Shown one piece after another: positions 8,973 through 46,872 of a stretch of DNA of 64,000 nucleotides. The notes beneath the pieces were generated by a model that worked only from the letters and a program-made list of their open reading frames with translations, did not search any database and had not been told where the DNA came from. A program made the position numbers and the translations under genes. The DNA comes from Elusimicrobia bacterium GWA2_61_42 (GTDB lineage Bacteria > Elusimicrobiota > Elusimicrobia > Elusimicrobiales > UBA9959), in the NCBI GenBank assembly GCA_001799615.1, contig MGTU01000021.1, forward strand, positions 27,268 through 91,267, in the 5' to 3' direction. Position 1 is the stretch's first letter; each line of letters starts with the position of its first letter.

Positions 8973-8996
8973 CAAAGCCGGATCTTCTGCTATAAT
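8947..8996 (+). promoter_or_regulatory. Sigma70 promoter with upstream palindromic operator (copy 1)
   Basis: TTGACA 8969-8974, 16-nt spacer, TGc-TATAAT 8991-8996. Upstream TTGAC-tc-GTCAA (8947-8958) and inverted repeat GTCAAGGG-caac-CCCTTGAC (8954-8973). Confidence 0.8.
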
Positions 8997-9007
8997 ATGA
9001 TTGCAGC

Positions 9008-9165: not shown

Positions 9166-9187
9166 GTTTGTCCCAAAAGAGCGGGGC
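9056..9187. repeat. Perfect 15-bp inverted repeat enclosing 102 nt
   Basis: GCCCCGCTCTTTTGG (9056-9070) and CCAAAAGAGCGGGGC (9173-9187). Confidence 0.9.
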
Positions 9188-9198
9188 GTTTCTTTAAG

Positions 9199-9277
9199 TA
9201 TCCGACAATAGCAAAGCCGGCCAAAGCCGGCGGCGCAAAGCCGAGGGCCCAAGGGGGTTGCCTGGCTGCCGAAGATC
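9199..9277 (+). ncRNA. GEMM-I (c-di-GMP-I class) riboswitch aptamer, A20 variant (candidate 3',3'-cGAMP sensor), copy 1
   Basis: CGACAAT-A-GCAAA, P2 GCCGGC-caaa-GCCGGC, GGCGCAAAGCC junction, P3, and 3' GGCTGCCGAA, matching GEMM-I core motifs. The base equivalent to Vc2 position 20 is A9210. Confidence 0.88.
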
Positions 9278-9280
9278 AAT

Positions 9281-9499
9281 ATGAAAGAGCGGTTCTACGC
9301 CCTCTGTTGCATATTTTTAAGTCCCGTTGCGGCTTGCGCCGTAGCGGCTTTTTTATTGGCTGACAGTTTAAAAATAGTTTTCCCGCTTTGTAACCTTTCC
9401 GTAACATTATTTATATATTATAATAAGATGGCACTGAACGTCCCGGCAATGGAAGGAGCACTCCTGTCTGGTCGTTCGTCGTCGTTTGTAAAAAACTGA
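9281..9499 (+). CDS. Putative leader ORF (72 aa; internal ATG 9428 gives 23 aa) abutting the giant gene
   Basis: Starts 3 nt after the aptamer, spans the terminator and ends TGA directly before the giant-gene ATG, in the same frame. Coding status is uncertain. Confidence 0.35.
   Translation: MKERFYALCCIFLSPVAACAVAAFLLADSLKIVFPLCNLSVTLFIYYNKMALNVPAMEGALLSGRSSSFVKN
9324..9354 (+). terminator. Intrinsic terminator, likely expression platform of riboswitch 1
   Basis: 10-bp stem CCGTTGCGGC-ttgc-GCCGTAGCGG (2 G-U pairs) followed by C and T6. Confidence 0.8.
9389..9421 (+). promoter_or_regulatory. Direct-repeat box TGTAAC-N5-CGTAAC plus -10 element (candidate internal promoter of the giant gene)
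   Basis: GTAAC at 9390 and 9401 (11-bp period). TATTAT 9416-9421 lies 10 nt after the second box; TATAAT also occurs at 9419-9424. Confidence 0.55.
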
Positions 9500-12400
9500 A
9501 TGGCGCTAAAAGGTAAGGATAAAGCGAAAAGTTTTGCGACCCGGCTGGCCCGGGCCGCGGCGCTTTGCTTTTTCTCCCTGACCGCGCTGCTGCTCCCCCA
9601 GGCCGAACTTTACGCCGCCGACTACGAATGGGGCGTGAAATACGCCATGTACGAGCTGCACGGCCGCAACTGGGGGTCCACGGCCGCCAGGACCACCATA
9701 GCTTTCCGCTTCACGGCCAAATACGACGGCACCGTGGACGAAATGAACATGATAGTGGGCCGCGCCCCCAACGCCAACCAGTCCATGCGCATCGGCCTGG
9801 CCTCCTCCCTGGGCGCCAACGCCGGGGCCCAGACCTTCCTGGCCTACGCGGACGTGAACCAGACCGGCGGCAATTCCGGCTACGCCTACTGGCAGGTGCA
9901 GGCCACCAGCGGCACCCCGGTAAACGCCGGCCAGGACTATTACCTGATCATGCGCCCTAACGCCATGACCAGCAACTCGGCCCTTCAGGCCGGCACGATG
10001 TTCGGCTATTCCAACGCCGACACGAAGGACGCGGCCGGCACCAACCTTATCTATCCTGACGGCGTTGCTGACAATAACCTGCAGGTCTATTACTCGAGGA
10101 GCAGCGTGGAGCCCTTCTCCCAGGTGCCCAACGCCATGCCCACCTTCGTCATCCGTTACGCCAACGAGGGGGCGGGCAACAGGTACCAGGGGCAGCCCTA
10201 TGGCGCCTTCCCCGTCAGTTCCGACGAAGCCCTGTCGACGGCAGAAGGCGGTATAAACACCGCCGTGCCCAGCTCTCTGGCGAACGTGCTGACCACCGAG
10301 AGCAATATTTACGGCTGGCGGGGCGTGGGCTATTACTTCACCGCCGACGCCGCTACCAGGAACATCGTAAAGGCCAAGATCTTCCTGCAGAAAGTGGGCA
10401 CCCCGGTGGACAAACTGAATGTGAGGGTGATCCGCGCCGCGCCTCCTTACGCGGTGGTCCTGGACACCACCGTTTACGCCGGGGCGGCGGACATCACCAC
10501 TACCTGGGGCTGGCAGCCGGCGGCCGGCAAATCGTTCCCGGGCGGCGTCTTTACCCCGGGGCTTTCCTATTACGTCTATTTCTTCTCCAGCGGCAGCCTT
10601 AACGGCAACCACTACCGCGTTTCGCTGATGGACCCCAAGGACTACGGCGGCGCCACGGCCGCCGGCGCCAACCTGGTCACCGCCAACGGCACGGCCGACT
10701 ATTACGTGGCCAACGCGGACGTCAGGAATTTCGCCGGCTTCGCCCGTCCTTACGCCAATACCTACGGCGACATCCCCATAGCGCTTACCTGCGACAACGA
10801 CCCGCCCGAAGTGGTGGTCACGCAGCCGCTCAATAACTCGGCGCGCAAGCTCATGGCGCTGATAGAGGGCACGGCCTATGATAATTATTACATCAGGGCC
10901 GGCGGCGTGCAGGTCTCCATCAAGAACATCACCACCACCAAGGTCTGGGACGGCGCCGGCTGGGTGGACGGCGAAGTTAACTGGCGTCCGACCACCGCCT
11001 TCTCGCCCAGCGAAGGGGCCGTCATCAACTGGTCCTACCCGATGACCTGGGTGCACAACAATAAGTACGAGATCAATACCAAGGTTGTGGACAGCGTGGG
11101 CAACTACGAAGGCAGCTGGTCTACCACCACTTTCTTCTTCGACGAGTACAAGCCTCCGCCCAACGAAGTGCCCGATTCCACCATGACCTTCCCGTCCAAC
11201 GGCATCTTCGTCAGCGCGCTCGACACTATCAGTGGCGTCGCGACCGACAACTCGCCCAACGGCAGGATCAGCCTGGTGAAGTGGATGATGTGGAAACTCG
11301 GCTCCTACTGGGGCGACGACAAGCTGTGGCACGCGGGCCTGCCGCCGGCCAACGTGGATACCACGTGGCTTAACTCCGACGACGGCTCCGGCTCCTACAC
11401 GGTGACCTGGCATGAGTACTTCGGCAGCGGCCAGATCCCGGACCCCGGCCAGATGGACACCGGCACCACCTATTATATAGCCGCCAGGGCCGAGGACAGC
11501 GTGGTGGGCCCGACCGGCGCTTACGATAAGAACAAGGAAGTGGTGCGGTCCACGTTCACTTTCTACTGGGACGCGGTGCCGCCCACCTCGGCCATCACCT
11601 ACCCGCAGAACAGCGGCGTGGCCGGCACCTCCCCCGTTTTCTACGGCACTTATTTCGACCAGCACGCCGGGATGTCCCCGGCCAGGGGCGCCGCCGTCAA
11701 GGTAAAACTTTACGACAAGACCGCCCAGCTCTGGTATCACGCCACCGGCTGGGACCCGGACGAGCCCACCCTCCTGGAGATGCCCGAAGCCGCCGTCTGG
11801 GCTTCTTCCTGGACTTATTCCCCGCCGTCCGGGCTGACCGGGGCTCACGAGTACCTGCTGGTGTCGATAGCCAAGGACGCCACGCAGCCCGGCAATTACC
11901 AGAGCAGTTTCGTCCTGGGTACTTCTTCCAATAACTTCGTCTGCGATAACCTGAACCCCGTCACTTCCATAGGCGTCCCCAACACGTCTTTCCGCAACCA
12001 GCTGGTCTCCATATCGGGCGCGGCGCAGGATTACCCGCAGCCCGGGCAGCTGAGCCGGGTGGAGATAGAGATAGTTCACCCGGCCGACACCCCGGCTTTC
12101 GCCTGGTCCGGCACGGCCTGGCTGCCCATTGTCGAGGATAATTTCAGCACCTATACTTATGTTTCAGGCGGCTACCCGACCTGGTCGTATACCCCCGTGG
12201 GCATAGGCTGGACCGAAAGCATCAAGTACCGCGTAAGGGCCAGGGCGCGCGATAACATAGGCAATATAGACCCGCTGTTCACGCTGGGTGTCAACGAGCG
12301 CCAGTTCCGCTATGACGTCTCCTTCCCTACCACAGCGGTCAATGTGCTGGTAGAGGACGGCGTGGAGCTGGCCACCCAGACGGTAAACAAGCTGCACGAC

Positions 12401-24400: not shown

Positions 24401-27400
24401 ACCATCGCCCGCTTCGTGGTGGACGGAACGCCGCCCGTGTCGCGCGTTTCCACCCCCACGGCGAACAGCTTCATCCAGGGCACGCTGCCCGAGATCTCCG
24501 GCACCAGCTACGCCGGCCGCTCGGGCCAGGCGGCTTTCCCCAACGGCCTGAAGCTGAAGATCTCCAACGACGTCGCCGGCGATACTTACTACTGGAACGG
24601 CCACACCGCGCAGGGCTGGAGCTCCGGCACCCCGGTGGAACTGCCGGTGCAGTATACGTCCTCCCAGTCCACCATAACCTGGAGATACCCGCCGGCCACT
24701 TACGACGCGCCGACCATTTTGATCAACAGCCAGGACTACACTATTTCCATAGCCGGCATCGACAAGGCCGGCAATACGGAGACGGCCGCGGAAATAACCG
24801 TCACGTCCGACTTCAATTACCCGGTCATAAGCATCTCCACCCCGATGGCCGGCGCAAGTTCTTTCTACGGCCCGTCCCGCCCCACCGGCCTGCTGACCGG
24901 CAACTCCGCCGACACCCCGGCCCAGATCCTGCCGCCGATAAAAATTCAGCTCTCGAATATTTCCGAGCCGGGCGCCGTGAAGCCGAAGTGGGACGGTTTT
25001 GTCTGGACGGTGGTGACCTCTACCTGGCTGGGCGTTTCCGACCTGAGCCCGTGGACTTACCCGCAGCCGGCCTGGCCTTCCAATAAGCGCCTGAAGGCGG
25101 AGTTCTGGGCCGTGGACTACGCCGGCAACCAGGTGCCGGACAGCACTTATACCAGGGAGTTCATTTATGACGTGAACAAACCCTCCTCCACCATAGCCGC
25201 GCCCTCGGCCGCCTTCCATACCGCCGCGCAGGTCGCGGCTTTCTCCGGCGGGGCCGCCGACTGGATCAATACTTCCACGGAAGCCATGAGCGGCCTGACC
25301 CCCGACGGCATAGAGATACAGATAGTGGAGCCTTCCGGCAATAAGTTCAACGGGGTCGGTTTCGCGGTGGGCGACTACTGGCGCAAGACCACTTTTGCCA
25401 CCACGACGTTCACCAACGACGGCGTGTTCGGGCTGGACATCGTCACGGCCGCCAACTGGACCTACCCGCGCTCTCCCGACGCCTGGCCGCCGGCGCTGGT
25501 GGAGAAGAGCACCTACACGGTGCGCGTGCGCTCTACCGACCGGTCGCTGAACACCGAGAACTACGTGGAAAAGTCTTTCTGCTACGACGCCTCCGCCCCG
25601 ACCGCCACCATAACCATGCCGGGCAATTTCGCCTACGTGGCCATGCCGGTCATCTCCGGCACGCTGCTGGAGCAGGCGAGCTACCCCGACCCCGCGGACG
25701 GCATACAGGTGGTGGTCCAGCGTGTTTCGGACCTGAACTACTGGAACGGCGCCGTCTTCGAGAAAGACACCGCCAACTTCCCGCCGGATGGTTTCAACCC
25801 AGCGGTCCACTGGCGCAACGCCACCACCATAGGCGCCGCCTCCTGGAGTCTGGCCGAGCCCGCCCTTAATACTTACTTCAACAGCCTCAGGGCCTCCAAC
25901 GCCTCGCTGCAGTTCCGCCTCTACCTGCGCGCCAAGGACATCGCGGGCAACCAGTCGCGCGCCGGCGCCGGCACGCCGGCCAACCCGGAAGTCAGCTTTA
26001 CCGTCGACCCGATCGTGCCGTCTTCCAAAGTTACCTACCCGTCCAGCGGCGCGTACGTTAACGCCCCCATAACGCGCATCGGCGGCACCGCCACCGACAC
26101 CAGCCTGGGCGTGCCTTCGGGCCTGAACAGCGTGCGCCTGCGCTTCTCGAAACTTAACCTGGGCGGCACCCGCTACTATTACAACTGGGTGCTGAACAAC
26201 TGGGGTACCGATTCCGCGGCCTGGATCTTCACCCCGGTGGACCTGGCGCTGGACCCGTGGAACAGGACTATTCCCGCCTCGGCCTTTACCGGGGACAGCA
26301 CTAACAACGGCGACGGCTACCGTTTCGAGGTCCAGTCCGAGACCAAGGACAAGACCCAGGTACCCAACGGCGGCCCCAACACCGAGGTGCTCTACGCCAC
26401 TTCCACTTTCGTCATGGACCTCAGCACGCCTACCGCGGCCATCCAGCAGCCGCCGCACCTCAGCTATTTCAGGGCGCTGTCCTCGCTGTCCGGCACTTCG
26501 GAGGACGTAGTCGCCACCCCCGTGGGCGGCCCCGCGGGCGGGGGGGGCATCCCGTCAGGGCTGGCGTCCATGGAGTACGTGCTGACGGACACCGACAGGC
26601 TGCCTAACCGCTACTGGGACTTTAACGCCGGCGCCTGGTCGGCCTCCTACGTCTCCAGCGTCACCGCGCCGGGCGCCAGCTGGACCATGGCCGCGCTGCC
26701 GGCCAACTTCCCGCCCTCGGCCGCCGCTTCCTGGGCGGTAACGCGCTCCAGCGCCACCTTCCTGCTTAAGATGAAGTTTACGGATAACGCCGTCAACGTC
26801 TCCAGTTTCACCGTGAATTATTCCACTTTCACGCTGGACCTGATCCTGCCGGTCTCCAAGGTGACCTCTCCCGGCGTAGAGGACGGCTTCCAGCTGGTGG
26901 TTTCCAGCATCGTGGGCACGGCCACCGACTTTACCTCCGGCATCTCCACCGTGCAGGTGCGCATACAGCAGGACACCGCCCAGACGGACTGTACGGACAC
27001 GTCGGCCAACGGCCGGTACTGGGGCGGCTCGGCCTGGCAGGCCGGCGAAAAGTGGCTGGGCGTCAACTCTTATACCCCGGGCGATACGTCCTGGACCTTG
27101 GACACTTCCGCGGTCGTCTTCAAGGCGCAGTGCTACTACGTCATAAAATCCAGCGCCGTGGATAACGTCAGCAACGGCGAACTGAACTGGGGTTCGCGGC
27201 GTTTCAAATTCACCCCGCCGCCGGCCTTCACCCGCGTGACCGTGCCGGACAACCTGAAGTATTACAAGGCCGTGACCCTGATCAGCGGCACGGCCAATGC
27301 CGACGCCGAGAGCGTGGCGCTGCAGGTGCGCCGCCTCAGCAACAACGATTATTGGAACTTTGGCACTTCTTCCTGGCAGGTCGCCCTTACCTCGGCTTCC

Positions 27401-42400: not shown

Positions 42401-44974
42401 TATGACGGTTCCGGCATAGACGCGGGCACAGGCAAGCCCTATCTGCGGGTCTTCGCGAGGGGGGAGAAGCTGGGCGACTTCTATACCCCGGTGGTCAACC
42501 ATCCTTCGCGCTCCCCGGTGCGCAAGGTGGACCTGTTCGACCAGGAGAACCCGCTGAACACGCAGACTTATATCAACCTGTCGCAGGTCCAGACTTTGAG
42601 CCCGCTGCCGCAGACGTACTTCTCGGTCTACGACATCGGCGAAATGGCCATCAAGGCCAACAAGGTCGGCATGATGATCCGCGACAAGTCGTGGATAGTC
42701 GTCAACGCCCCGCACGACGTTTCGCCCAGCGTTTACGTCGGCATCACCAAGGCGCTGCCCAAGGGCACGTACTCCGAGATCTACCCGTTCAACTCCAGCC
42801 TGGTGCCGATCAAGGCCGTCAACCTTACGGTGACCGGCATCAGCATCGCCCCGAAGTCGGCGGAAAAGAACACCAAGAGCGTCCCCGTTATGACGTTCAA
42901 TATGGCTACGCTGACGGACTACGTGGCGCTGGGCCAGATCAACCTGCAGCAGACCGGCAGCATCAGCAGCGCCACCTTCAACTTCGGCGACGGCGACCTG
43001 GCCGGCGTGGCCCTGTGGAAGGACGACGGCGACGGCGCTTTCAGCCCGATAAGCGACGCGCGCCTGGGCTACACCGTGCATTCCGCCACCAACACCTTTG
43101 AACTGGGGGTCTCCGTCTCCATCCAGGACGGAAACCTGCCGTACCTGATCATCTCCACCTCCACGGTGATCCTGCACCTTTCCTGCGACATCAGTTCCGG
43201 CACCGACCTCTCTGACTCCGACACGATGGGGCACCTGGCCGGGCTGACGCTGGGTTCCTTCACCGACCTGCGCGGCATGGGCGGCATGCAGCTGGCCGCC
43301 GGGCAGTATTACGCCGACACTTACCCGATGGAATCCAACCAGATCCTTATTTCTCCGGCCATCATCCCGCTGACGCCGGTCTACAGGCCGATCATGCTGG
43401 CCTCCAACGGCTACCCCGCCTATACGCAGGTGGATTCCAGCGGCAACGTGAAGCTGGGCTTCGGCAATATCCCGGAGACGGACACCACCTTCTGGGACTA
43501 TACCCACCCGCCCGCGGGCTGCCGCGCCGGCGAGCCGCTGATAGACATCAACGGCGACATGATCCCGGATAACTTCGACTATTACGGCTCCGGCAAGTGC
43601 AATAACATCAGCCTGAACAACTCCGGCCTGCCGTCCTTCGATATCGACGGCGACCACCTGCTGGACTTCGAGAGCAACCTGGACTATGTGCCCGACAGGA
43701 TCATTAACGACGGCACGGGCAAACCGCTTTACTTCATCGGCGACAACGTGCAGAACGTGAAGATGCTGCTGGCGGTCTCCGACCTGGGCGCCGTGCCCTC
43801 GGTCTGGGCGGCCAAGACCACGGAACTTACCGCGATGTGGAACCCCGCTTCCACCACCAGCGCCGTGGCCTATGAACTTTCGCTGGGCGGCAGCTTCTCC
43901 GACCCGACCGGCATTAAGAACGCCTGGCAGCCGGCCGGCACCTCGCTGGCGGGCAAGCTGACCAACGTGGCGCTGTCACCCGGGCATTTCACCCGCCTGG
44001 CCAGCCGCATAGACGTCAACACCTCTTCGTTCTCGGTGATCTCGGCGGCCGGCTTCGCCGCCGAGGGCGTCGTCTACGTGGGCAACGAGATCATGGTGGT
44101 GACCAAGATCGACGACGGCACTTTCAAGATCAACCAGCGCGGCGTGCAGGGCTCGTTCAGGGGCCCCCATACGGCCTGGGGCGAGACCGTGTCCGACCGC
44201 GGCTACGTGCTGAGCGTGCGCGGCCAGATGGCCGACGGCCGCTATATTCCCAGCGAGAGCGGCGTGCCCATAATGATCTACCGCATCGATACCACCTACC
44301 CGACCAACCCCGGCGCCCCCGAGCCCCAGGTGGCCAAGGGCGTGGCTTCGGGCCAGGCCTATACCCTTAAGTGGGACTCCGCCGAGGACCCCGAGTCTAA
44401 CGTGATGTCCTATGAAATACAGGAACGCGAGGGCACCAACCCCGTCTGGAAAACGGTGGCGGCCATCCCCGGCTTCAAGACCGGCGGCGCCATAAACAAT
44501 ATCTACACCATAGGCGACCCCGTGAACCCCGGCGAAACCCCCAGGCCGCTGGGCAAGTACTATACCTACCGCGTGCGCAGCTGGAACTTCGCGGGTATAC
44601 ATTCCGAGTGGTCCCCGGTCTCCACGCCGGCCGGCACTACCGTAGGCGAGGAGCTGCTCAGCAAGGTGTCCAACTACCCTAACCCGGTGGACCTGCGCAA
44701 AGGCGGCGTGGAAGGCAGGACGGTCATCAATTACACCCTGAACGATAACGCCGAGGTCACTATAACCATCTACGACCTGCTGGGTTATATCGTGCGGGAA
44801 TTTACCTTCACCAGCGGCACGGACGGCGGCAAGCTGGGCCCTAATTTCGTGATCTGGAACGGCCGCAACGGGCTGGGCGGCTATGTTTCCAAGGGCGGCT
44901 ATATAGTAAGGGTAAAGGCTTCCAGCCCCAAGGGCAGCAAAGTGATAATGCGCAAGGTCGGAGTTATCCACTAA
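9500..44974 (+). CDS. Giant secreted Ig-like repeat protein (11,824 aa), putative adhesin with FN3 and T9SS-CTD/FlgD-Ig-like C-terminal domain
   Basis: Uninterrupted ORF with strong codon bias. About 39-aa Sec signal peptide; about 50 repeats P-x-S-x-I-x2-P...ISGTA-x-D...YW-x-G-x2-W...RA-x-D-x-AGN (10793-31485); a second Ig repeat type (31486-38130); Ca-loop beta-sandwiches (38131-43370); FN3 (44297-44623); C-terminal SNYPNP...IYDLLG...WNGRN...GGYIVRV...KVGVIH (44648-44974). Confidence 0.93.
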   Translation: MALKGKDKAKSFATRLARAAALCFFSLTALLLPQAELYAADYEWGVKYAMYELHGRNWGSTAARTTIAFRFTAKYDGTVDEMNMIVGRAPNANQSMRIGLASSLGANAGAQTFLAYADVNQTGGNSGYAYWQVQATSGTPVNAGQDYYLIMRPNAMTSNSALQAGTMFGYSNADTKDAAGTNLIYPDGVADNNLQVYYSRSSVEPFSQVPNAMPTFVIRYANEGAGNRYQGQPYGAFPVSSDEALSTAEGGINTAVPSSLANVLTTESNIYGWRGVGYYFTADAATRNIVKAKIFLQKVGTPVDKLNVRVIRAAPPYAVVLDTTVYAGAADITTTWGWQPAAGKSFPGGVFTPGLSYYVYFFSSGSLNGNHYRVSLMDPKDYGGATAAGANLVTANGTADYYVANADVRNFAGFARPYANTYGDIPIALTCDNDPPEVVVTQPLNNSARKLMALIEGTAYDNYYIRAGGVQVSIKNITTTKVWDGAGWVDGEVNWRPTTAFSPSEGAVINWSYPMTWVHNNKYEINTKVVDSVGNYEGSWSTTTFFFDEYKPPPNEVPDSTMTFPSNGIFVSALDTISGVATDNSPNGRISLVKWMMWKLGSYWGDDKLWHAGLPPANVDTTWLNSDDGSGSYTVTWHEYFGSGQIPDPGQMDTGTTYYIAARAEDSVVGPTGAYDKNKEVVRSTFTFYWDAVPPTSAITYPQNSGVAGTSPVFYGTYFDQHAGMSPARGAAVKVKLYDKTAQLWYHATGWDPDEPTLLEMPEAAVWASSWTYSPPSGLTGAHEYLLVSIAKDATQPGNYQSSFVLGTSSNNFVCDNLNPVTSIGVPNTSFRNQLVSISGAAQDYPQPGQLSRVEIEIVHPADTPAFAWSGTAWLPIVEDNFSTYTYVSGGYPTWSYTPVGIGWTESIKYRVRARARDNIGNIDPLFTLGVNERQFRYDVSFPTTAVNVLVEDGVELATQTVNKLHDLTEIKGYYQDYPPASDGSWGGINVFIEKIDGKPLGDPFCWDGANGFWRSDVCPVKNAGVTGWYFDASDITWATGTARTDPLDPLTSYSAWSNGGVFRIRTEGRDTAVPGNTLQMAGNREKIGVYADLPYIDLTYDPKKPTSKLTNVPANGYANTLPVLEGTASDRDTTVNYVPRIAGVKLHIFDLSNTKTFNKNTLEWDEDDGDLLFDDDHWVDAAFVGYSSGTWSYNITDAKWAHGSTYRVIPKTFDDSGNYEVGLDTRTFTFDVYQPMPSEAPSSLIGFPPDDYHANTRASLAQVTGTAKDNPPIGKVLGLKIIMKRIVEGTTSYFTGGTWAAGDIPENASSWYNATAVTPPFDTSAEPYTYALPPIVDDDMWEPNVVYYLYTECRDWAGNYEHVRTTQTFVYEIKHPTATVTYPVTDGYVSSGGKVEGVALDTWPGKVNNVFVRIKRNVDSWYWDSANTTWTDAGAPDVWNDVSLHGTLSLNNTWWQLGPTTWETGQLYTVDAKAVDKAGNWQIVYSTALRVAADFAVPSSSVTYPANGDDLTTDLTLISGSASDALPGRVNRILLSYYKVTAPAGFWDRTAGNWSSAVELFYDGTVLVGQDKWQATGASTPTWVTTDAGVDYQIFAKAVDAANNEVVKPGSPALNSPLVQFKLRTPLPLSYILTPDGTLPHWKPNPSNSIVGTAIFSSTVQLRIVDYGGDFLVGGGDDLVYDGASWLPAGPPNDTLFIGVQSFDGSTWQHTLPSAHWNGNRKYNVKSKAWLNLIPENPGTGTDFIIDATPPAAAVSNPGQAYMKALTVLEGAVSDTPPGALQYTYFRVKRQLEEKFWNWQTSTFTALSGGYTDLVPQTVIGGLASYTTDYFVSGAAWEANQSYVVQFYSTDKANNLGTAAPMPFTLDISSPSSGLVVPLAANKGGIKSMPYISGTAYDFWRSTAVEVAVRRLSGTQRWYDGGGFNVSGAVPYWLDVNNTAGFLSPDATSWMYRPADLDGDLDTGGLYLILSRARDVAVNSQDQFTSNISSMVVKVDQSAPTSLIVYPADDTGGVSGRYKPGVVGQDDIRGTAADNPGVNYAGVSDVKVRLSYLEGVTTYYWFGGAFVAVSSETAWLNTALDGSSAPPWIWEYTGMVLWPAADKEYLLETKGRDLARDADDGVGGNGNVEAWPYSSRRFIVDGTPPSVVITTPSALALKTLTRIDGTADAALAGNRWTDIRISTNGTDGLKYWDDAAIPPGWVSADQTWNQSTTLGPTSWYYTVNPDMLKDDVVYTVSARALDYAGNYSVLFSTYIFTYDITQPAVSVVFPLNDTAYSQIKISTPLAGASLQAGQSSANTGVSTVAVQVTDLDGGPACFNGAAWDVCPAWLPAGGNVGSWNYARAALGFANDHRYRVEARATDFAGNDSSVASLFFRYDIERPTTTLTYPLPGLTTGFAYVSGTASDERFGVHLYEAKLSSYTVKVAVKRLTDPAGWWDLASGEFDGGNPNWYEANNSTTVAPNRFLYNLPAAMITKMTDPGNQDPAVTYRIVSWGYDLALNREFGAQGSEPLDADIPPGVGTNVTFDSEKPVTAITMPNVAAHNLVPNITGTADDNVRVSEVRFTAFLPGLGKYYNPAANPVWVEGTEDAAPWLAAQSTIYQTSAAWTYNIQTSTWVSGYTYRVRARARDDSGNYDTVYATATFLYDTAAPESSISEPAAGAHINTLPLTLVGASYDTHASGVNQIKLYVERLIGTVTYYWDTSSWQTTETYLPIAPPYANWTRLMEDSMLIDGELYKVYTDARDNALNQEGVGLKTSFVYDVSHPTAAIFYPYNNGFISATGKVSGGTYDKPNGTVNDVLVRVKKLTGTVDVGKYWSVNGSSWTVDNTANSVVSYGTLSPGATWWQLNADPYPWATNETYEMNAWAYDKAGNYQFIYATATNVTADFTNPVSTITSPLHGVTIEAEIDSVSGNASDANLEKVLLSYRKMDTLRYWNLATHAWDSVPELFYPAALIGNNWTATGASTPTWIAPLAGMDYQIFAKAVDKALNEVPKPGLPGPLSSFIQFTLKPPPPVSAITTPDLSVPHYKPVPAPQVIGTAVYATTVAVRVVDYGPDLVSGGADNLAWNGADWLPASVFTGFAGVDNYVAPNWQWTIPSAKWNVNRRYRVISQASHEVNLTVETPGVGVEFIVDSTAPSAGVTMPDKTYMRSLTALAGTLSDVAPGDAASAYFRVKRQGLAEYWNWQASTFTALNGQYTDLPAALAWNETLKTGTAQYTTGYFLAGLAFEQDRSYSVELYVNDKAGNPGSAAAFPFSIDVSSPVARVLNPVDANKKGLRVLDGISGTASDNWLNSDVQIAMQQWDNSNNLWYGFDGLSWDFNQASPYWISMKTNGSLSNDATSWMYAPGGLDGKFTPGISGYKYMLLSKAVDTAGNAQSQYTVDVSSVLITMDKADPSSVITLPLDDMTGAGGRYKAVNIGKTATASRFNGTAKDDAYDQNNSGVAAVQVRLSYLLSNDTYYWNQSNLNFSSWTVTAATAWAGCLLGGSAPNWTWTFLTDISWPAGDREYKLESRAMDDARASDDTGEGNWEEPVSRGVNVKYFIVDDTPPTVVITTPAASAVSALPGFGGDAAALIAGLNTVQVQVSTGTGINTRYWNGAAWQATEWPALNDTKLGPTSWYYTLSPLALKDDVAYTFVARALDYAGNVSAEYSTYTVTYDITGPLVSLSFPVNNTTYSQILLSTPLAGTATNNQTAAFSGPSTVAVAITDLVNSTCFNGASFAGCSDSLWLPAQNTVAAWTFTDKDLSFISDHNYKYEARSADAAGNYSGVTSVTTKFDLDIPTSTVTGPMTEYVKALTVITGTAQDERNGIRTYEASLGTYTVKMAIRIVGGNWWNGSTAFDSANPKWYEVAVNTAPYGSGDPVVGWQYLVPADVQGVMAGLSGSPPYLRSYLLVPWAYDLAQNREFGPGGMDPVNTDVPGGVGRILKFDNILPVSVTTAPANISYKRSVLSLYGVATDTGVVTGVQVLVKARGGFSATWKGTYANNLSDWDFSESTKYLNWVNAVYANGGWSIPLPALSPVNNSKISVWTRATDVAGNVENTPSDAQIIANLNFNGTPAYYFTFDDLIPETGVTAPDRYALSVATGIIAGTAFDAGTEPSNVSEVLVRLRRSDDKYWSFYNSNWTSANPTDVFNMDGTNNWTKGVPVTSQDDGYAYYVYHYAKDNALNNTSGAYFSTFTFIVDLTTPTSRITFPAHNSFIGSVPAIAGTADDAVENLQGWTSPRNYEAGISTDTGVDLAIQRLTDDKWWDGTGFGAGARQWKLTVFTGASSGTWVYNLPGGAIADGTTYYAMTRVRDLVGNIQTIYTTNYFTGDTTPPDSRATAPTGSLSNILVISGTAQDTLPGELLGSNMVRIALRKITAPQACYDNASNSWTGCPAFAYPNDRIWFTTGTVNDVRGQPGNWTWNTSAIGWANGHSYDIQALAIDKAGNVRCQADPAACPGQNSPDLTFSFVSPAANTFINTPDTEMGNYRGSTPAGVSDLQSIIGNGTNLRASGSVQIRIKRLKEPVAWWYQGLTEHYWLATDTYTFVNATAGAWSLGISGLEAFTVDNATYTFSTVGYNSANEAQSPPTNRTVIVDNTMPLGAVLSPGKPYINSMPVISGTAADPGREALAAAYREGMNRVLVMIRDDAGKYWNGQTFDTFMSSSNILADQTLNWSTATAVTAAMRDGRSYTVFGKPEDKAGNRDDNEGSAPSYSVIYDTTTPKSWIAQPAPLSILRSLDSIAGTAMDPAGTYGPLKSDLVRVELQIYEESTPKWWHHGTSNWSVTSSSFNAVTGTDNWNYTNPALPPRLTSGWYYILQSRAVDAAGNNQAGFINNISSLTFIWDVTPPVTFLVQPMNGENYKPSALTGVNALNGTASDAVLPYTTDHLSKVQMNLSYLDTGVTYYWNDASFTNAISSEAAWVEVVGTATWRRTFDGVSTLYGQSFGNWISDKDYTLMIRAFDTAAPLGVNGGNEQDPLTIARFVVDGTPPVSRVSTPTANSFIQGTLPEISGTSYAGRSGQAAFPNGLKLKISNDVAGDTYYWNGHTAQGWSSGTPVELPVQYTSSQSTITWRYPPATYDAPTILINSQDYTISIAGIDKAGNTETAAEITVTSDFNYPVISISTPMAGASSFYGPSRPTGLLTGNSADTPAQILPPIKIQLSNISEPGAVKPKWDGFVWTVVTSTWLGVSDLSPWTYPQPAWPSNKRLKAEFWAVDYAGNQVPDSTYTREFIYDVNKPSSTIAAPSAAFHTAAQVAAFSGGAADWINTSTEAMSGLTPDGIEIQIVEPSGNKFNGVGFAVGDYWRKTTFATTTFTNDGVFGLDIVTAANWTYPRSPDAWPPALVEKSTYTVRVRSTDRSLNTENYVEKSFCYDASAPTATITMPGNFAYVAMPVISGTLLEQASYPDPADGIQVVVQRVSDLNYWNGAVFEKDTANFPPDGFNPAVHWRNATTIGAASWSLAEPALNTYFNSLRASNASLQFRLYLRAKDIAGNQSRAGAGTPANPEVSFTVDPIVPSSKVTYPSSGAYVNAPITRIGGTATDTSLGVPSGLNSVRLRFSKLNLGGTRYYYNWVLNNWGTDSAAWIFTPVDLALDPWNRTIPASAFTGDSTNNGDGYRFEVQSETKDKTQVPNGGPNTEVLYATSTFVMDLSTPTAAIQQPPHLSYFRALSSLSGTSEDVVATPVGGPAGGGGIPSGLASMEYVLTDTDRLPNRYWDFNAGAWSASYVSSVTAPGASWTMAALPANFPPSAAASWAVTRSSATFLLKMKFTDNAVNVSSFTVNYSTFTLDLILPVSKVTSPGVEDGFQLVVSSIVGTATDFTSGISTVQVRIQQDTAQTDCTDTSANGRYWGGSAWQAGEKWLGVNSYTPGDTSWTLDTSAVVFKAQCYYVIKSSAVDNVSNGELNWGSRRFKFTPPPAFTRVTVPDNLKYYKAVTLISGTANADAESVALQVRRLSNNDYWNFGTSSWQVALTSASGIAPAGGAWTYNTNLPPLVSGSSYTFRAIGKSFSEVDESAPATNQVYFDTLKPEAFVQVPDSGQLYYNSLPKLGGTATDPPGATPPASGISRVWAEIADVNGPSAGKFWDNATSTFTAVWNQAGNQGVYYIAASSWTYSVAYPTAAYTNGVQYQVRAKSLDNTYNNSSPEGTESDFSGGNLFSFDVTVPTAVVTAVSAAQSRSGVAVASGTILEDLVIVNVGLQPGVQIQGIRVHLKDNNLVQYWNGGGWDSNPAVWAAAAVHQSSWSLSSLPAWADDGSYTVWAEASDKAGNTQTVFAGNGSSVTFTVDKAAPTLAVLNPAANTKISTVLSVSGTANDPNYGTNSGIAGPANIQAQVSYLLAGDTYYYDNAATFSSFTLSDTNSWWPATTWTPQGPSSGTWIYDPAGLTASMVPDKVYRFRARAQDNAIPVPNPAVLTANAVTNLNVIYDVTPPVSRITFPYDLARIRTLVSIAGTSQDNLAGISTLGQLGVSIAEKSPAGGHWNGVYPGTFTLTSEVFQPLSAASLAASYDGLTWSFTAPNLRDGYTYIIKVRASDDVTPANTEAVISSVTFTYDTTPPAAAITYPYTLPDSRGNLKALVTVSGTAYEQFVIRSASISVQEADTLLYYDTQFSTFNSLGQKWITAGIDVSPGPNYTWSVAAPPLTDNKNYNLQVTANDAAGNALTPGSPIVVRYDVSAPLSRPVLPVNNGFIKSLTQVTGTAADINSNPSGISGSQVKIQRNIDSLYWNGSTWGTEAWLDPMGGTPWTKNTQLPPSDNFSGLHDTRQYTVMTRAYDVAGNTQSVILAGNVFTFDISSPTAFVSLPLDGSRYNTLPQVSGTAEDLFNVNFPQVRLYDIPLNKFWMEGTGSCGGAALPGWVGPSCAAFPEIWNVALDSSSASGSFNWGYNSSALPWPDRDHELRVEAKVADQAGNYTFTSSTFSYDATPPGSRILYPPVNDLLYSSMTAISGTSLDLTSAVNEVRIRLWYLSGPSTYYWQPTAPHWSASDTGWQSIGGAPGPKATLNPWSYTNSDFSNPGTVNFAWKEGTHDGENGKTFQIITRAVDATTNEETTVSTRTFVFDNVPPVSAPVQPGIDTAYRNLPVIHGTSVDAVTTVASVKISILGQDEGGGQKYFDGSNFINVTETWLPIQPANLYPSSWSYTNGLLTLLDKRHYIVKSSATDSIGNVQNIVGQSRFLFDTTEPQSVVVSPVNATVYNDNKVVLGNSSDPGFTNGINGTGSGVYPSLPWHSGKVDALVFRDTEPFLASNGPIIYGAWDDSGYFWNGSTWAAAAAGPVWQAGQFTDSLGNWQYSGLVCPDPNPTNIPCWVRGDPYVSWVRVTDNAANTETIIDQGPKFYIAAPAQSFLVTVSADPMTAGSDINMSVTAKDGPNGTGNTAAAYQGLANFYLDGVPGGPEVMDTDGVMDNYHGLPQQYLFLPGDFGTRTFQMRARKAGGRVLRAEDNDNPAIFGTRNITVNPTTPDRVQVIADFDPSGQQPAPGRMDFGVEGSTGAPRTKPAGSNVPFLLQVTDMYWNLVVSSAASVYVSDTDTNNDSISADGLVVFTGSTTISRTFVSANSAGWGVTASGQGLYTNPRNPSSNVPVIAQAADRLLALLPGETRVQGKAYVQPYGKTGTPDDRLAGSTLPVTVYGVDPYYNTDITAAFQVSAAITSDPYDITPAPQNLVSGATVFVFVPVVAATQTIKTESSSLSPATSVYFTPNPVKVWWNRPAKLHLIPAGQALDAGRPPYSSNPSGGGKSGSSYALQAGVTTQMAVYLVDDYYNVVRGTTPFMVDVASNTPVIQVDFLNDPNIQGRGMHPTPYQKSLVAGATNFSVIPVTRNQTTGLSVRVTDTGLTSTFYSTDTVNGVIVNPAPAVNMLLLVPNEVAAEGVPGGKTGTAGPLVAGSTYTVSVRAVDTYGNLTTDGRMVRIISNDIYAVHPPAQPMAGGIAMINGFVPSAATNNMVIDALDDDSVTPKLSTGTDSGVVVAPGTASRLIVLLPTQYLVPGKTVPPYGVAGSISTQTAGVYFTASVYAADTRYNRVYGIAKSNIRATSDDAFAPNLGFFEMTDGSATITNISLRSAGFRTVTATDLSGSLPNLGATPSGTFLLNPNNPTKLRTMVPVETRVGGSTGNGRTGVVDGQQAGFPFTVTVDIADAFWNLTPGASQEIRLVCNDPFSIVSPSTQVVLGSATFTVTPKRAGPTYVRAEMVAAVPAWGPTLNVDTATLVNVAAGIPRRMLLLMPGETFDQGSPTGKVGSLGEQKAGTDFGVTVGVVDDFFNLVPGRPADVRVNTPSDPYAPAVSTAAINTGSGYTDLMYVNLHKAATHYLTATDYGSSGLSDDPQSSTFTVRPADPVGLQLLVPGQTAVPGSGAYPAGGKVSVISTQTAGTPFYVTVNLVDPYMNRYTDLTVGPTVYLVTSDIYDAETSSSALNYGTLQMQMNLVTRTSASTIKVFPVSAADNNVCSGNFGDVCLGSDAAAKASLKVFSSTATRLEVVLPGQGLAEGKCNISPPCRDPMISWPGRTGPPAAHTIGTGAMFASVYVTDQFYNRATELVAAAQDTNPVAVMPSVEISMPGDFKTLKPSPQTLSNGSAVFSIDARTALSSYTVVGATIAASAASYATGISTIAVNPGPPTHMLYVLPSTTVVAGFPFSATLIVRDIYENNCSTGPNVYLGTAAFAMVDQINPNQDSSLSAPTVPFYRSDLAVKDLPGWFTFRKAGVNTMGAYDTLNPMVNVTPLVNVAVLPGPPNIYRVEPNADVEVGAGSNDLRGQKVMTAQLSDAFDNNISSSGVPAYLDIAEVVGDTGTLQYQSGASWLYMGVSTIVYTDLNGQVGISTPMAYRVSSKAGDWARVWIGTTTVAGPAAYATYVAARQNVSGKMTTIGGVPSKLLFISSQPAATVGIQEVAGAGAPFTLERRDYFNNLTTEGQTDVFLSLPSAQVSIHTALGRTMGTFGTFGDYGFRGPMNDQFIPVASILPNQTNVSFRYHDRTSSYSGLSPALNTREGNRPGYWQIEARSGALQHAEHQLRVDPIDIAKVSFGNAQRTLVAGKITDNFGVQQHFKAELRDMFDNPSLATAAVRVAISTFTRQPSLVNDSFSFSASTVAAAAFPPVFASTVTYLDIPIDSYSATFYYLDTTASSVYGSTLTLRPLIKLQADDQPAWASSTQPVHVLSDFTYRVNVSLNAGQSVMAGTTSQMFAMSIEDKFGNPTPVASGQEDAIGAGVSFNMDSDSAGDVRFSAPDVSSFTVNPGSAKMALGESATSFYLIDTLTSHPTHQLTINTVMAKGWLPAVSSYTVVPAQPDHVYFHTTPRRLVAGTTLQYADFALNLTTPTVVSVVLKDRYENTTTTSSVATVRFSAVRNTTYGGIDPTESVLSSNPSWKLLKTNPLDLSIFPGQSFANIYIWDTIVGTATLTADASIAADFVTFPRITQEAYITPSTAAYFTLHHAYNLGNPLRVQTPGNVTLRVRDKFGNITTGDTVNGNYYTGKIKMATNSRGSADLRDWLANTTDYTFVPADHGERELLLQDTFVETLKVNVTDYHSTSIYGYTGDSARGMPVVSNADVVLSGLVITPTDMSPEDPLPVAKASIGINKYAMYQGDGVIADVPAPVPMLRLTMQTSPIGAPPAYMKSVQVKSSGTLAWSDMVEVAMYADNPTYGQIGAFDGETELGGAPVDIFMSSGTYDTGLMAWSFDDLAAKVSTAALVSNTPRNFFFAVRVSTLASTPRSFALVLDNPSFVVLNSTFVGVAYNNFPIATATSPVRNQPATIQIQGEDIAAWWQPTVGTTTLTLGRYPYVEQGQGRVGFLEIKAWTENFIGTIKSFKIIKTGTGSGADLRSVRLFLDSSGGDPDLGDGIFAASIDKEITDPLNPPLYDVLDPDTFVLPLINPGIDGAISVSTRSYFVVYEFGSDAISSMTHGARLENSGVNLVDGVVGAFQPIVSSTVPLYSTADIVYLVDVNKSQPNDFSKPSFVTQDDRDKAVVRLTMQINGSQGSAIWSGLKLDRWVTAAENGNTPVWNKVTDVKKISIWQDSSGNGLLETTGLDKDTEVLMIGPNLRTFPYDALKAPIMSTDTVIRVYDVQRFFATDSPFPPAPGRLIVNDGQANPDLKEVIYYSTVDVLGNAFSGLTRGAEGTVVPSSWPAGTILSGQAVLPMIGSGGALDGQAIYNVAKDYFVTYDIDPLANVSNFAYIGMAIRSTDYFMIAAPKLMSTANVGVTAPGKSLSLIGKVREYSDEVIVKATDTILGPTLQQQGVDQPVMAFTLETNVADAMWRWLTVYATGTVIQDGTAINDISVVKVWYDKDNNGFLGGSDVMVGSGTFGNTIYGPLTARVDFGTEQRIITALEAANSAISHRYFLTYDIRDSAMPNDALGNPRYLGAYLKAESLPQGSPIVDDPRKNALSLPNFFSAVNSNLTFVSRVREIISSPSTVTVLTEPIFSPDYSASKLSVRLADHVNTIVAQDSNWVVTSTVGLPSSGYAVVDNEIVHYAGTTAGALSLVTRGAFNSPIITHSSGTVLGGMIYQGMINYPFMQMTLTTSGYGVRWVGLKLSRKQPASLVGYDDDVAVVRVWKDNGNGVFDRDAATGLNTSDVIVGSGRFGANDPVGKATIYVKDPALNDQNYVVVKSTPILIFVSMDIDKASRFSNVLLSPQNDVLGVEIPFETNFLFGPENSGHTAQFLSPALSQLNALLPTLNNITLTPEDISPVSVTQNDKNVGVLAMRLVTDKTSARVEAIKLDRRGSANDSDIDLIKVWKDSNDNCILDSVDTSSSGAGVYPNLASYGNESFSSSTVNIALKNPIVVTTNPVCAFISYDMSQFAIIGSTAGLSINSTAYVTIGIPNTVTLTTWPVNTMPMVVWEIPSNVALGANDVANELVLAGGVNQAQLKAPMLRFNLATEAGNARWSAIKVQRTGASNDPNAPFGKNTDVKLITIYQDSNQNDMLDVNDVNISEARSIILNAFTSTDTLPFNLVLASTAGFPVSGRLYIEEAELVSYDGSGIDAGTGKPYLRVFARGEKLGDFYTPVVNHPSRSPVRKVDLFDQENPLNTQTYINLSQVQTLSPLPQTYFSVYDIGEMAIKANKVGMMIRDKSWIVVNAPHDVSPSVYVGITKALPKGTYSEIYPFNSSLVPIKAVNLTVTGISIAPKSAEKNTKSVPVMTFNMATLTDYVALGQINLQQTGSISSATFNFGDGDLAGVALWKDDGDGAFSPISDARLGYTVHSATNTFELGVSVSIQDGNLPYLIISTSTVILHLSCDISSGTDLSDSDTMGHLAGLTLGSFTDLRGMGGMQLAAGQYYADTYPMESNQILISPAIIPLTPVYRPIMLASNGYPAYTQVDSSGNVKLGFGNIPETDTTFWDYTHPPAGCRAGEPLIDINGDMIPDNFDYYGSGKCNNISLNNSGLPSFDIDGDHLLDFESNLDYVPDRIINDGTGKPLYFIGDNVQNVKMLLAVSDLGAVPSVWAAKTTELTAMWNPASTTSAVAYELSLGGSFSDPTGIKNAWQPAGTSLAGKLTNVALSPGHFTRLASRIDVNTSSFSVISAAGFAAEGVVYVGNEIMVVTKIDDGTFKINQRGVQGSFRGPHTAWGETVSDRGYVLSVRGQMADGRYIPSESGVPIMIYRIDTTYPTNPGAPEPQVAKGVASGQAYTLKWDSAEDPESNVMSYEIQEREGTNPVWKTVAAIPGFKTGGAINNIYTIGDPVNPGETPRPLGKYYTYRVRSWNFAGIHSEWSPVSTPAGTTVGEELLSKVSNYPNPVDLRKGGVEGRTVINYTLNDNAEVTITIYDLLGYIVREFTFTSGTDGGKLGPNFVIWNGRNGLGGYVSKGGYIVRVKASSPKGSKVIMRKVGVIH
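12812..21304 (+). repeat. Tandem 11-domain super-repeat (about 1,426 and 1,405 aa) inside the giant CDS
   Basis: Domains 1-11 of 12812-17089 match domains 1-11 of 17090-21304 in order, e.g. TGASTPTW...DYQIFAKAVD and YDLA-x-NREFG occur in both. Confidence 0.85.
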
Positions 44975-45080
44975 AGCGCGCCGGGGGGAGGCGGGGGCCT
45001 GCCTGCAAGGTTGTTAGTAAGGATATATAGGGCTGATCAACACCTTGGCCAGCGGTCCAAAACCATGTTTGGGGCCGGCC

Positions 45081-45130
45081 TTGACATGTCAAGGGGGTGG
45101 CCTTGACAAACCAGTTCTATCTGCTATAAT
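45081..45130 (+). promoter_or_regulatory. Sigma70 promoter with upstream palindromic operator (copy 2)
   Basis: TTGACA 45103-45108, 16-nt spacer, TGc-TATAAT 45125-45130. TTGAC-at-GTCAA 45081-45092 with the same 22-nt offset to the -35 as copy 1. Confidence 0.8.
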
Positions 45131-45146
45131 ATTAATGCCGTAAATC

Positions 45147-45163
45147 TGTAACGAGTTTGTAAC
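45147..45163 (+). promoter_or_regulatory. TGTAAC-N5-TGTAAC direct repeat (OmpR/PhoB-family, WalR-like box)
   Basis: TGTAAC-gagtt-TGTAAC, lying between the promoter and riboswitch 2. Confidence 0.6.
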
Positions 45164-45171
45164 GCCGTATT

Positions 45172-45254
45172 GTTACGATAATAGCAAAGCCGGTGAAAGC
45201 CGGCGGCGCAAAGTCAAGACCCGCTAAGTGAGCGGGGGTCAGACTACCGAAAAC
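45172..45254 (+). ncRNA. GEMM-I riboswitch aptamer, A20 variant (candidate 3',3'-cGAMP sensor), copy 2
   Basis: CGATAAT-A-GCAAA, P2 GCCGGT-GAAA-GCCGGC (GNRA loop), GGCGCAAAGTC, P3 CCGCT/AGCGG, and 3' GACTACCGAAA. The position-20 equivalent is A45183. Confidence 0.88.
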
Positions 45255-45255: not shown

Positions 45256-46872
45256 ATGAAACGCATTCTTGCTGATGCTTTTGCCCCCTTGGCTATATGG
45301 GCTTCTTTGAAGCGTGTAATACGCTTCAGCCCGGTCATGGGGCTTTTTATTGCGTTTTCGGCGGCTTCGGCCCTGGCCCAGAGCGGCGGCCAGCCCGGGG
45401 CTTTCATGTCCTACGGCGCCGGCGCCAGGTCCCTCGGTATGGGCGGCGCTTTCTTCGCGGTGGCCGACGACGCCTCCGCCTCTTACTGGAACCCCGCCGC
45501 CCTCACCCTGCTGGAGCGCAAAGAATTCACCGCCATGCAGGCCACCCTCTTCGAAGACACCACGCTTAATTTCTTCACCTACGCGCATCCCACCACCACC
45601 AAGGGCACCTGGGCGATCAGCATGACCCAGCTTAAGTCCGTGGGCTTCGAGAAGATCTCCATCACCGCCAATCCGGCCGGCGACGAGATCGTGGACATCA
45701 AGACCGAGGGCAGCTTCGACAGCGTGGAGCAGGCCATGGCCTTCTCCTGGGGCCGCGACGTCTCCGATAAGCTCGCTTTCGGCGTGATGGCCAAGAACAT
45801 CACCCGCTCCCTGGACACCTCCGTCGACTCCTTCAAGGCCATCGACATCGCCATGCTGCAGAAGTTCTCCAAAACCTACCGCGCGGCCATCGGCATACAG
45901 AACGTGTTCTCCATGGCTTCCGGAGATACCGACGACAAGCTGCCCCTGACCATTAAATTCGGCCAAGCCCTGAGCCTCTTCAAAGGGGCCCTGGTCTTCG
46001 GTTTCGATATCGCCAAGCCCCAGAACTCCGCCACCAACTGGCGCTTCGGCGGCGAATACTGGCTGATGTACTGGAGCGCGCTGCGCTTCGGCGTGATGGG
46101 CACCCCCGCCATCCAGGAAGCCGATTTCGGCCTGGGCATCAAGTATAAGAACCTCGGCTTCGACATCTCCCAGGGCGTGCACGCGCTGGGCTCCACCACC
46201 CGCTTTTCCGTCACGCTGCGCATGGGCCAGTCCAACAAGAGCAAGCACGACCGCGAGGTCCGCGAGATCGTCCGCCAGGCCCTGCAGTACTTCAAGTCCG
46301 GCTACTTCACCCGCGCCATGGAGAAGCTGCGCAGCGCCATGGACGCCGACCCCGGCAACGCCGAGATCCGCCGCATGGTGACCCGCCTGCAGGGCGCCAT
46401 CGACTACGTGCCCGACGCCACCGGCGGCGAGGAAGTGCCTACCCTGACCCGCCGCGGCATCATCGCCTACGTGGACGGCAAAGACCTGCGCGCCTCGGTC
46501 AACGTGCTGCGCCACGCTTTCAACAAGGACCCCAAGAACGACCGCCTGCTCTCCCTGCTCAACATGGTGGAGAAAGAGGCCAATGTGAGCGAGCTGACCC
46601 GCAAGCCCGAGGGTCCCGAGATCTTCACCTACATAGACCAGCGCACCTATGACGCCCGCCAGTCCATCTACGACGGCAAATACGACCTGGCCATGAAGCG
46701 CGCTCAGGACATCCTGGACCTCGAGCCCAACAACGAGACCGCCCTGGAGATCATGGGCAGCGCCTTCTACCTGATGGACCAGAAAGAGAAAGCCAAGGTC
46801 ATCTGGGAGCGCGTGGTGGAGATCAACCCCAATAACTCCATAGTGAAGAACTTCCTCAAGCAGGTGCGTTAA
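45256..46872 (+). CDS. PorV/PorQ-family (UPF0164, FadL-like) outer-membrane barrel with C-terminal TPR region
   Basis: Signal peptide ending ASALA-Q; hallmark GAGARSLGMGGAF-x-AVADDASASYWNPA; alternating beta-strands to about STTRFSVTLRM; TPR helices after. Confidence 0.85.
   Translation: MKRILADAFAPLAIWASLKRVIRFSPVMGLFIAFSAASALAQSGGQPGAFMSYGAGARSLGMGGAFFAVADDASASYWNPAALTLLERKEFTAMQATLFEDTTLNFFTYAHPTTTKGTWAISMTQLKSVGFEKISITANPAGDEIVDIKTEGSFDSVEQAMAFSWGRDVSDKLAFGVMAKNITRSLDTSVDSFKAIDIAMLQKFSKTYRAAIGIQNVFSMASGDTDDKLPLTIKFGQALSLFKGALVFGFDIAKPQNSATNWRFGGEYWLMYWSALRFGVMGTPAIQEADFGLGIKYKNLGFDISQGVHALGSTTRFSVTLRMGQSNKSKHDREVREIVRQALQYFKSGYFTRAMEKLRSAMDADPGNAEIRRMVTRLQGAIDYVPDATGGEEVPTLTRRGIIAYVDGKDLRASVNVLRHAFNKDPKNDRLLSLLNMVEKEANVSELTRKPEGPEIFTYIDQRTYDARQSIYDGKYDLAMKRAQDILDLEPNNETALEIMGSAFYLMDQKEKAKVIWERVVEINPNNSIVKNFLKQVR
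45308..45348 (+). terminator. Two adjacent hairpins plus U-tract inside the porV signal-peptide coding region (possible expression platform of riboswitch 2)
   Basis: TGAAGCGT-gtaat-ACGCTTCA (8 bp), then AGCCC-ggtcatg-GGGCT-TTTT. The second stem is weak. Confidence 0.4.

Follow-up and report, generated by a model that had tools for sequence, protein, structure and literature searches.

Two GEMM-I riboswitches with adenine at position 20 precede a giant surface-protein gene and a PorV/FliG-like/MotAB operon in an Elusimicrobia genome

We analyzed 64,000 nucleotides of DNA (hereafter the window) from Elusimicrobia bacterium GWA2_61_42, positions 27,268 to 91,267 of contig MGTU01000021.1 in assembly GCA_001799615.1. 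The window carries two riboswitches of the GEMM-I class, which is known for sensing cyclic di-GMP (c-di-GMP), and both have an adenine instead of a guanine at position 20 of the ligand pocket (A20). One stands before a giant open reading frame (ORF) and the other before a PorV-family gene. The two riboswitches are proposed to control transcription into the giant surface-protein gene and into an operon for the PorV-like protein, a FliG-like protein, a protein without family match, MotA, MotB and a further ORF. We favor, with moderate confidence, the reading that they are c-di-GMP-responsive GEMM-I variants, either lower in affinity or bispecific, and probably OFF switches. GGDEF cyclases of the Asp type would make the c-di-GMP and HD-GYP enzymes would break it down, and A20 would lower affinity or render the pocket bispecific without marking a dedicated pathway for cGAMP (3',3'-cyclic GMP-AMP).

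The window was compared by cmscan with all 4227 families of Rfam 15 at their gathering thresholds. RF01051 (c-di-GMP-I) was the only family matched. Its two matches, both on the + strand and covering model positions 1-87, are far above the gathering score of 35 bits:

9200-9273, + strand: GEMM-I aptamer 1, RF01051 58.8 bits, E 6.2e-09; U19 at 9209, A20 at 9210; P2 loop CAAA; short P3.
45173-45251, + strand: GEMM-I aptamer 2, RF01051 57.8 bits, E 1.1e-08; U19 at 45182, A20 at 45183; P2 loop GAAA.

The original prediction, made by reading the DNA, had placed A20 aptamers at 9199-9277 and 45172-45254, with P2 loops CAAA and GAAA, respectively. The matches agree with these bounds within a few bases, and the covariance-model alignments bear out both the loops and the adenines. 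The variant base is the unpaired model position 11, which adjoins the 5' side of the G-C pair closing onto CGCAAAG; it is A in both aptamers where the consensus is G, and the sequence around it reads AAU-A-GCAAA in both. Model position 11 corresponds to G20 of Vc2, and the same offset sets A47 on the first A of CGCAAAG, matching the G20/A47/C92 pocket described for Vc2 (PMC6140456). The other two pocket bases, A47 (in CGCAAAG) and C92 (in CCGAA), are kept in the window aptamers. RF01051 as curated takes in position-20 variants. An RNAalifold consensus of 19 orthologous porV leaders predicts 48 pairs, 19 of them with compensatory change on both sides; P2 pairs are so changed in 3-5 of the 19 sequences, and P3 and P1b also covary. 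Both window elements are genuine riboswitches of the GEMM-I (c-di-GMP-I) fold and are paralogous.

As the original prediction would have it, each aptamer is set between a promoter and what it was said to gate, the giant gene or the porV/motor genes, with an intrinsic terminator in between. The parts of the two leaders and the first genes behind them are as follows:

8969-8996, + strand: predicted sigma-70-like promoter of riboswitch 1, TTGACA-16-TATAAT with an upstream TG, 12/12 consensus.
9324-9354, + strand: intrinsic terminator 1, a 10-bp stem CCGUUGCGGC/GCCGUAGCGG with loop UUGC (hairpin 9324-9347), then C and U6.
9500-44974, + strand: giant ORF, 11,824 amino acids (aa), with a signal-peptide-like N-terminus.
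45103-45130, + strand: predicted sigma-70-like promoter of riboswitch 2, TTGACA-16-TATAAT with TG, 12/12, kept in all orthologous leaders.
45158-45177, + strand: leader hairpin P0, UGUAACG/UGUUACG, its 3' strand being the proposed 5' strand of P1.
45283-45348, + strand: intrinsic terminator 2, a GCCCC (45283-45287)/GGGGC (45339-45343) stem enclosing a hairpin at 45309-45327, then U5, with covariation.
45256-46872, + strand: PorV/PorQ-family outer-membrane protein with a C-terminal TPR region, NF033709 105.9 bits (cut-off 90).

The consensus scan behind the prediction of promoter 1 found four sites, against 0.4 expected from shuffled sequences. The giant ORF starts 145 nt past the U-tract of terminator 1. 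In copy 2 the arrangement is tighter: the PorV-like ATG (45256) lies 4 nt past the aptamer match and is kept in all leaders and in lineages with G20, and terminator 2 falls within codons 10-31 of the PorV-like ORF. The RNAalifold consensus around aptamer 2 consists of P0, the aptamer helices, a hairpin directly 3' of the ATG, and the long-range terminator stem. Seven pairs are predicted for P0, with one-sided variation only (G-U to G-C and similar), and we infer that P0 competes with P1 for the strand they share.

To place the two riboswitches among their relatives, we used a set of 24 genomes, the window genome and 23 related Elusimicrobiales metagenome-assembled genomes (MAGs). All 23 relatives have GEMM-I matches, from one to four per genome. 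The window genome has three aptamers, the third before a secreted Kelch-repeat protein:

Contig C9, 114475-114567 (locus L003, 1501-1593): third GEMM-I aptamer of the genome, 56.9 bits, with U19-A20.

U19-A20 is found in all 58 aptamers read (55 from relatives and three from the window genome), C92 is kept in every one, and a hairpin with a U-tract lies 3' of all 55 aptamers in the relatives. In at least 16 relatives, a second copy shares the contig of the porV copy and is situated 38-53 kb upstream of it. Leaders of class 1a, the type at the giant locus of the window, precede homologues of the N-terminus of the giant protein wherever the flank permits the check. A search with the FliG-like protein retrieved 26 loci, all from MAGs named Elusimicrobia, Elusimicrobiales or Elusimicrobiaceae save three titled 'bacterium'; the porV leader riboswitch was found wherever the flank was long enough, always with A20. 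Some relatives have an extra A20 riboswitch ahead of that of the giant gene, upstream of accessory genes whose products are a HEAT-like protein, some 250 aa long, and TMTC-like TPR glycosyltransferases (G001 contig C1, loci L065 and L073; G010 contig C303, loci L057 and L079). The locus thus has as many as three gated transcription units.

Across the phylum, GEMM-I occurs in 150 of 401 Elusimicrobiota genomes and in 82 of 122 genera. A PorV-like gene lies directly downstream in 18 of the 30 best-scoring GEMM-I loci, and nearly all of these 18 have G20. In three families of the same class (f5, f6 and f8) the PorV-like ATG follows a G20 aptamer by 4-6 nt, the same architecture as in the window. 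Because orthologous leaders elsewhere carry G20, the porV riboswitch is ancestral and A20 a derived substitution made in place. A20 is also found in families f3, f10 and f23, and G20 persists in the window's own family in two aptamers, L135, which is similar to the Kelch-leader type, and L137. The neighboring position of the pocket goes along with position 20: among loci L010-L146, taken phylum-wide, U19 is present in 67 of 68 A20 aptamers and A19 in 30 of about 39 G20 aptamers. In other classes of Elusimicrobiota, two G20 GEMM-I aptamers stand in tandem, 200-300 nt apart, before a PorV-like gene (L103, L106, L107 and L108).

Polarity was judged by analogy with related leaders and from the position of P1 in copy 2, and on these grounds the window riboswitches look rather more like OFF than ON switches. 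In 18 of 25 giant-locus leaders of the relatives, the 5' arm of the terminator carries UCUUCGG, the complement of CCGAAGA, the 3' end of the aptamer with C92 in it. When transcripts that stop short of the terminator's 3' arm are folded to minimum energy, UCUUCGG pairs with the aptamer end in four of six leaders; among class 1a relatives, the arm pairs with the 3' part of the aptamer in four of five. In copy 2 the proposed P1 (5' UUGUUACG with 3' CGAAAACGA) extends to the A of the start codon, and P0 competes for its 5' strand. Without ligand, the 3' part of the aptamer would be available to the terminator's 5' arm, the two forming an antiterminator, and in copy 2 the A-rich stretch before the start codon would stay open too. 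With ligand, P1 and the pocket would lock the 3' segment of the aptamer and the terminator would form, as is classic for an OFF switch. In copy 2, P1 would then also close the A-rich ribosome landing site, and fewer translating ribosomes would favor the terminator inside the ORF; such translational coupling is what we infer for this copy.

It is possible, though distinctly less probable, that the ligand is c-di-GMP and the polarity ON, with high c-di-GMP turning on the giant adhesin, along with its partners in export and motor function, for attachment to surfaces. Adhesins are commonly induced by c-di-GMP, and in C. difficile the adhesins CD2831 and CD3246, behind class II (ON) riboswitches, are up at high c-di-GMP (PMC11477304). 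The third A20 riboswitch of the genome has an ON-type design, a second 'GGCUACCGAA' copy, which resembles the aptamer 3' end, serving as the 5' arm of its terminator. Pairing between aptamer and terminator into an antiterminator is weak in the window's own two leaders, and their folds show no decisive antiterminator. However, terminators 1 and 2 do not overlap the window aptamers, so the simple ON design, in which the 3' strand of the aptamer is the 5' arm of the terminator, is not present in these copies. The recurrence in related leaders of pairing between aptamer 3' end and terminator 5' arm, and the P1 of copy 2 adjoining the start codon, also argue for OFF.

Two other pairings were considered as antiterminators in the window leaders. 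Pairing of CUUGCGCC in terminator 1 with GGCGCAAAG in the aptamer was rejected, as the motif is not conserved in class 1a relatives. For copy 2, a candidate pairing of GGGGGU in P3 with GCCCCC has only 6 bp, rivals the stable P3 hairpin and is missing in the most distant orthologue.

As to the ligand, Geobacter aptamers with A20 have up to about 1000-fold selectivity for cGAMP, and A20G reverses this selectivity to c-di-GMP (PMC6456294, PMC8835794). A20 pockets can also accommodate c-di-GMP via a stably protonated adenine (PMC6140456). The G20A mutant of Vc2 binds c-di-GMP with a dissociation constant (Kd) of 53 nM and cGAMP with one of 120 nM, and for the natural A20 aptamer Cbe 1-2 the values are 30 nM and 463 nM (PMC6140456). 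A20 is therefore required for selectivity toward cGAMP without being enough for it, both of these aptamers having a nanomolar Kd for c-di-GMP.

We therefore looked at which cyclic-dinucleotide enzymes are encoded. In the Hypr signature, Ser (or Thr) 348 replaces the guanine-reading Asp (D344 of PleD) in a protein that also has GGDEF (PMC6456294, PMC8835794). The window genome, which is 94.8% complete, codes for six GGDEF proteins, all with N-x8-D, and in a phmmer alignment to PleD their Asp falls on D344. The search for a Hypr-type Ser/Thr that had been proposed along with the cGAMP reading thus returned none in this genome. Among the 24 genomes there are 141 GGDEF domains, all with Asp at the Hypr Ser/Thr position; 139 were caught by the back-translated pattern N-D-x-x-G-[HYFL]-x-x-G-D and the other two, read directly, are also of the Asp type. 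The Ser/Thr version of the pattern gave seven matches in the 24 genomes, none within a GGDEF domain. A CD-NTase of the SMODS type was not found in the window genome and is present in one of the 24. The DncV-like model PF21654 had no matches anywhere, control genomes included, and so this search was without a positive control. Neither a Hypr GGDEF nor a DncV/CD-NTase, the enzymes with which GEMM-Ib riboswitches co-occur, was thus detected in the window genome, and the lack of a Hypr GGDEF or CD-NTase is what the original prediction had named as the genomic half of the case against cGAMP.

The sole SMODS cluster among the 24 genomes (G010, contig C136:2087-7456, loci L091-L093) has an in-frame TGA in one copy and looks like a sporadic defense island. 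Three response regulators of the window genome, kept in 24 of 24 genomes, have a Rec-GGDDF organization (C18:80018-80344, C34:11435-11767 and C4:193732-194037), with a shortened GGDEF match, an 'NPLTxLPG' linker, and Asp at D344 in the PleD alignment. The window genome encodes four HD_5 (HD-GYP-type) proteins and no EAL domain was found in it, so that cyclic-dinucleotide breakdown would rest on HD-GYP enzymes alone. Judged by gene content, the known routes to cGAMP are absent where A20 is universal, and ordinary enzymes of c-di-GMP synthesis and breakdown are present.

No known cGAMP synthase was found, G20 is the ancestral state and the set of c-di-GMP enzymes is complete, so it is most parsimonious to suppose that the ligand of the window aptamers is probably still c-di-GMP. 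The affinity for it would be nanomolar, versus picomolar in G20 aptamers.

Several points weigh against c-di-GMP-responsive OFF switches. U19-A20 is fixed in all 58 aptamers, the pattern of Geobacter, where A20 riboswitches read cGAMP, and selection clearly keeps A over G at position 20. The absence of known synthases does not exclude an unrecognized one in a genome of this completeness, and the DncV-like search had the limit given above. On polarity, the two window leaders form the terminator with or without the aptamer in thermodynamic folds, and whether or not downstream sequence is included; such folds are uninformative in this respect.

The original prediction was that both aptamers are of the GEMM-Ib type, selective for cGAMP, and that a cGAMP pathway controls the adhesin/motor locus. 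A20 in both window copies and in every aptamer read from the relatives is consistent with this, as is its constant company of U19, where most G20 aptamers in the phylum carry A19; that a further position co-varies is a hint of a remodelled pocket. The Geobacter precedent, in which aptamers selective for cGAMP come to select c-di-GMP once A20 is replaced by G (PMC6456294), also favors it, and in Bdellovibrio gliding is governed by cGAMP from a Hypr GGDEF (PMC9140294). We nevertheless consider it unlikely. None of the 141 GGDEF domains is of the Ser/Thr type, SMODS is confined to one genome that is not that of the window, orthologous leaders of the same architecture carry G20, and A20 alone yields aptamers that are bispecific or prefer c-di-GMP, such as Vc2 G20A and Cbe 1-2 (PMC6140456). 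The proposed cGAMP control is thus not supported.

A more far-reaching version is that the family re-tuned its whole GEMM-I regulon from A19-G20 to U19-A20 to read cGAMP or another adenine-containing dinucleotide made by an unrecognized class of synthase, for which the three conserved Asp-type Rec-GGDDF response regulators would be among the candidates. We regard this as less likely again; if true, it would mean an independent origin of cGAMP-type riboswitch signaling outside the Geobacter lineage, governing an uncharacterized surface machine of giant adhesin and FliG/MotAB. Least probable, and by some distance from the favored c-di-GMP reading, is that the aptamers read another adenine-containing dinucleotide or two signals, through an unrecognized synthase such as these three regulators: their conservation in all 24 genomes, the activity of the GGDDF enzyme GSU1937 in Geobacter (PMC8835794) and the bispecificity of A20 pockets (PMC6140456) fit such a proposal, but the Rec-GGDDF proteins keep the guanine-reading Asp in the PleD alignment where GSU1937 has Ser (PMC8835794), and C92, the partner of the second guanine, is kept in every aptamer.

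Behind the PorV-like gene, the following genes lie downstream of riboswitch 2:

47084-49033, + strand: FliG-like protein with FliG_M, FliG_C and TPR; TIGR00207 106.5 bits, below cut-off.
49113-51431, + strand: 772-aa ORF, no family match.
51779-52567, + strand: MotA/ExbB-family gene.
52627-53415, + strand: MotB/OmpA-family gene.
53429-54199, + strand: 256-aa ORF with a weak CarboxypepD_reg match, probably the final gene of the operon.

No promoter or terminator signal above chance was found between 46.7 and 54.4 kb. As none interrupts the run, the genes from the PorV-like protein to the 256-aa ORF probably form one operon.

The 11,824-aa protein behind riboswitch 1 has no Pfam domain at 1e-5. 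Its only matches, all sub-threshold, are to Big_13, FlgD_ig and a type IX secretion system (T9SS) sorting domain, the last at the extreme C-terminus (TIGR04183, 20.9 bits, cut-off 23). With its promoter at 8969-8996, riboswitch 1 has a 5' leader that takes in a GCGGU-rich array at 9003-9187; the leader of porV is short, with only some 35 nt up to the aptamer. An AT-rich element, TTTATATATTATAATAAG, stands at 9408-9427, past terminator 1 and ahead of the giant ATG, and may serve as a further promoter or bind a protein. Elements like TATATTATAAT recur 3' of the terminators of giant-locus leaders in relatives, visible as '..LYYN..' in the spurious ORFs there. We also considered leader-peptide attenuation in copy 1, through an ORF at 9281-9502 that runs through the terminator. 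In other classes of giant-locus leader its counterpart is missing or stops after two codons, substitutions track the RNA hairpin and not codons, and hairpin H1 sequesters its AUG; on these grounds, attenuation was rejected as a general mechanism.

The riboswitch class is well known. What is new is the phylum and the regulated genes, a giant protein and a PorV/FliG/MotAB module, together with a terminator inside the first 31 codons of a regulated ORF and the contrast of G20 and U19-A20 between orthologous leaders. A cyclic-dinucleotide riboswitch stands before a PorV-family/FliG-like/MotAB operon across much of the Elusimicrobiota, and the family of the window adds a copy before the neighboring giant gene. 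This placement marks an uncharacterized surface machine as a function under second-messenger control, of the lifestyle-switch kind, in an uncultured phylum (the host being a groundwater Elusimicrobia). G20 and U19-A20 in leaders of the same architecture, with no known cGAMP synthase, amount to a clean natural experiment on the effect of the A20 change, be it affinity tuning or a new ligand. A20 by itself is no ground for annotating a riboswitch as cGAMP-sensing.

Compared with Vc2 of V. cholerae, the RF01051 type, the Elusimicrobia aptamers have the same fold and the core GCAAA...CGCAAAG...CCGAA, with A47 and C92 kept. They differ in having A20 and not G20 and U19 in place of the usual A19, and copy 1 also has a non-GNRA P2 loop, CAAA, and a short P3. 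With the Geobacter GEMM-Ib riboswitches (Gs1761 before pgcA; Gm0970), as known from published descriptions, they share the A20 pocket, several copies per genome that are all A20, cell-surface genes downstream, and intrinsic terminators. Geobacter, however, has the Hypr enzymes GacA and GSU1937, both with Ser348 (PMC6456294, PMC8835794), whereas all 141 domains in the Elusimicrobia set have Asp, and the Geobacter GEMM-Ib elements are ON switches while the window copies look like OFF switches. Vc2 G20A and Cbe 1-2 have, like the window aptamers, an A20 pocket without a dedicated cGAMP pathway, in another phylum and with other regulated genes (PMC6140456). In C. difficile, c-di-GMP riboswitches of class I act as OFF switches of transcription (PMC11477304). 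The one before flgB is a GEMM-I OFF switch ahead of a motor operon with FliG and MotAB-type genes, in keeping with the usual logic of motility repressed by c-di-GMP (PMC11477304), and the porV riboswitch may be a switch of this kind too. The flgB operon encodes a true flagellum, whereas in the window a putative OFF switch precedes a PorV-family protein, a lone FliG-like protein and MotAB, beside a giant surface protein.

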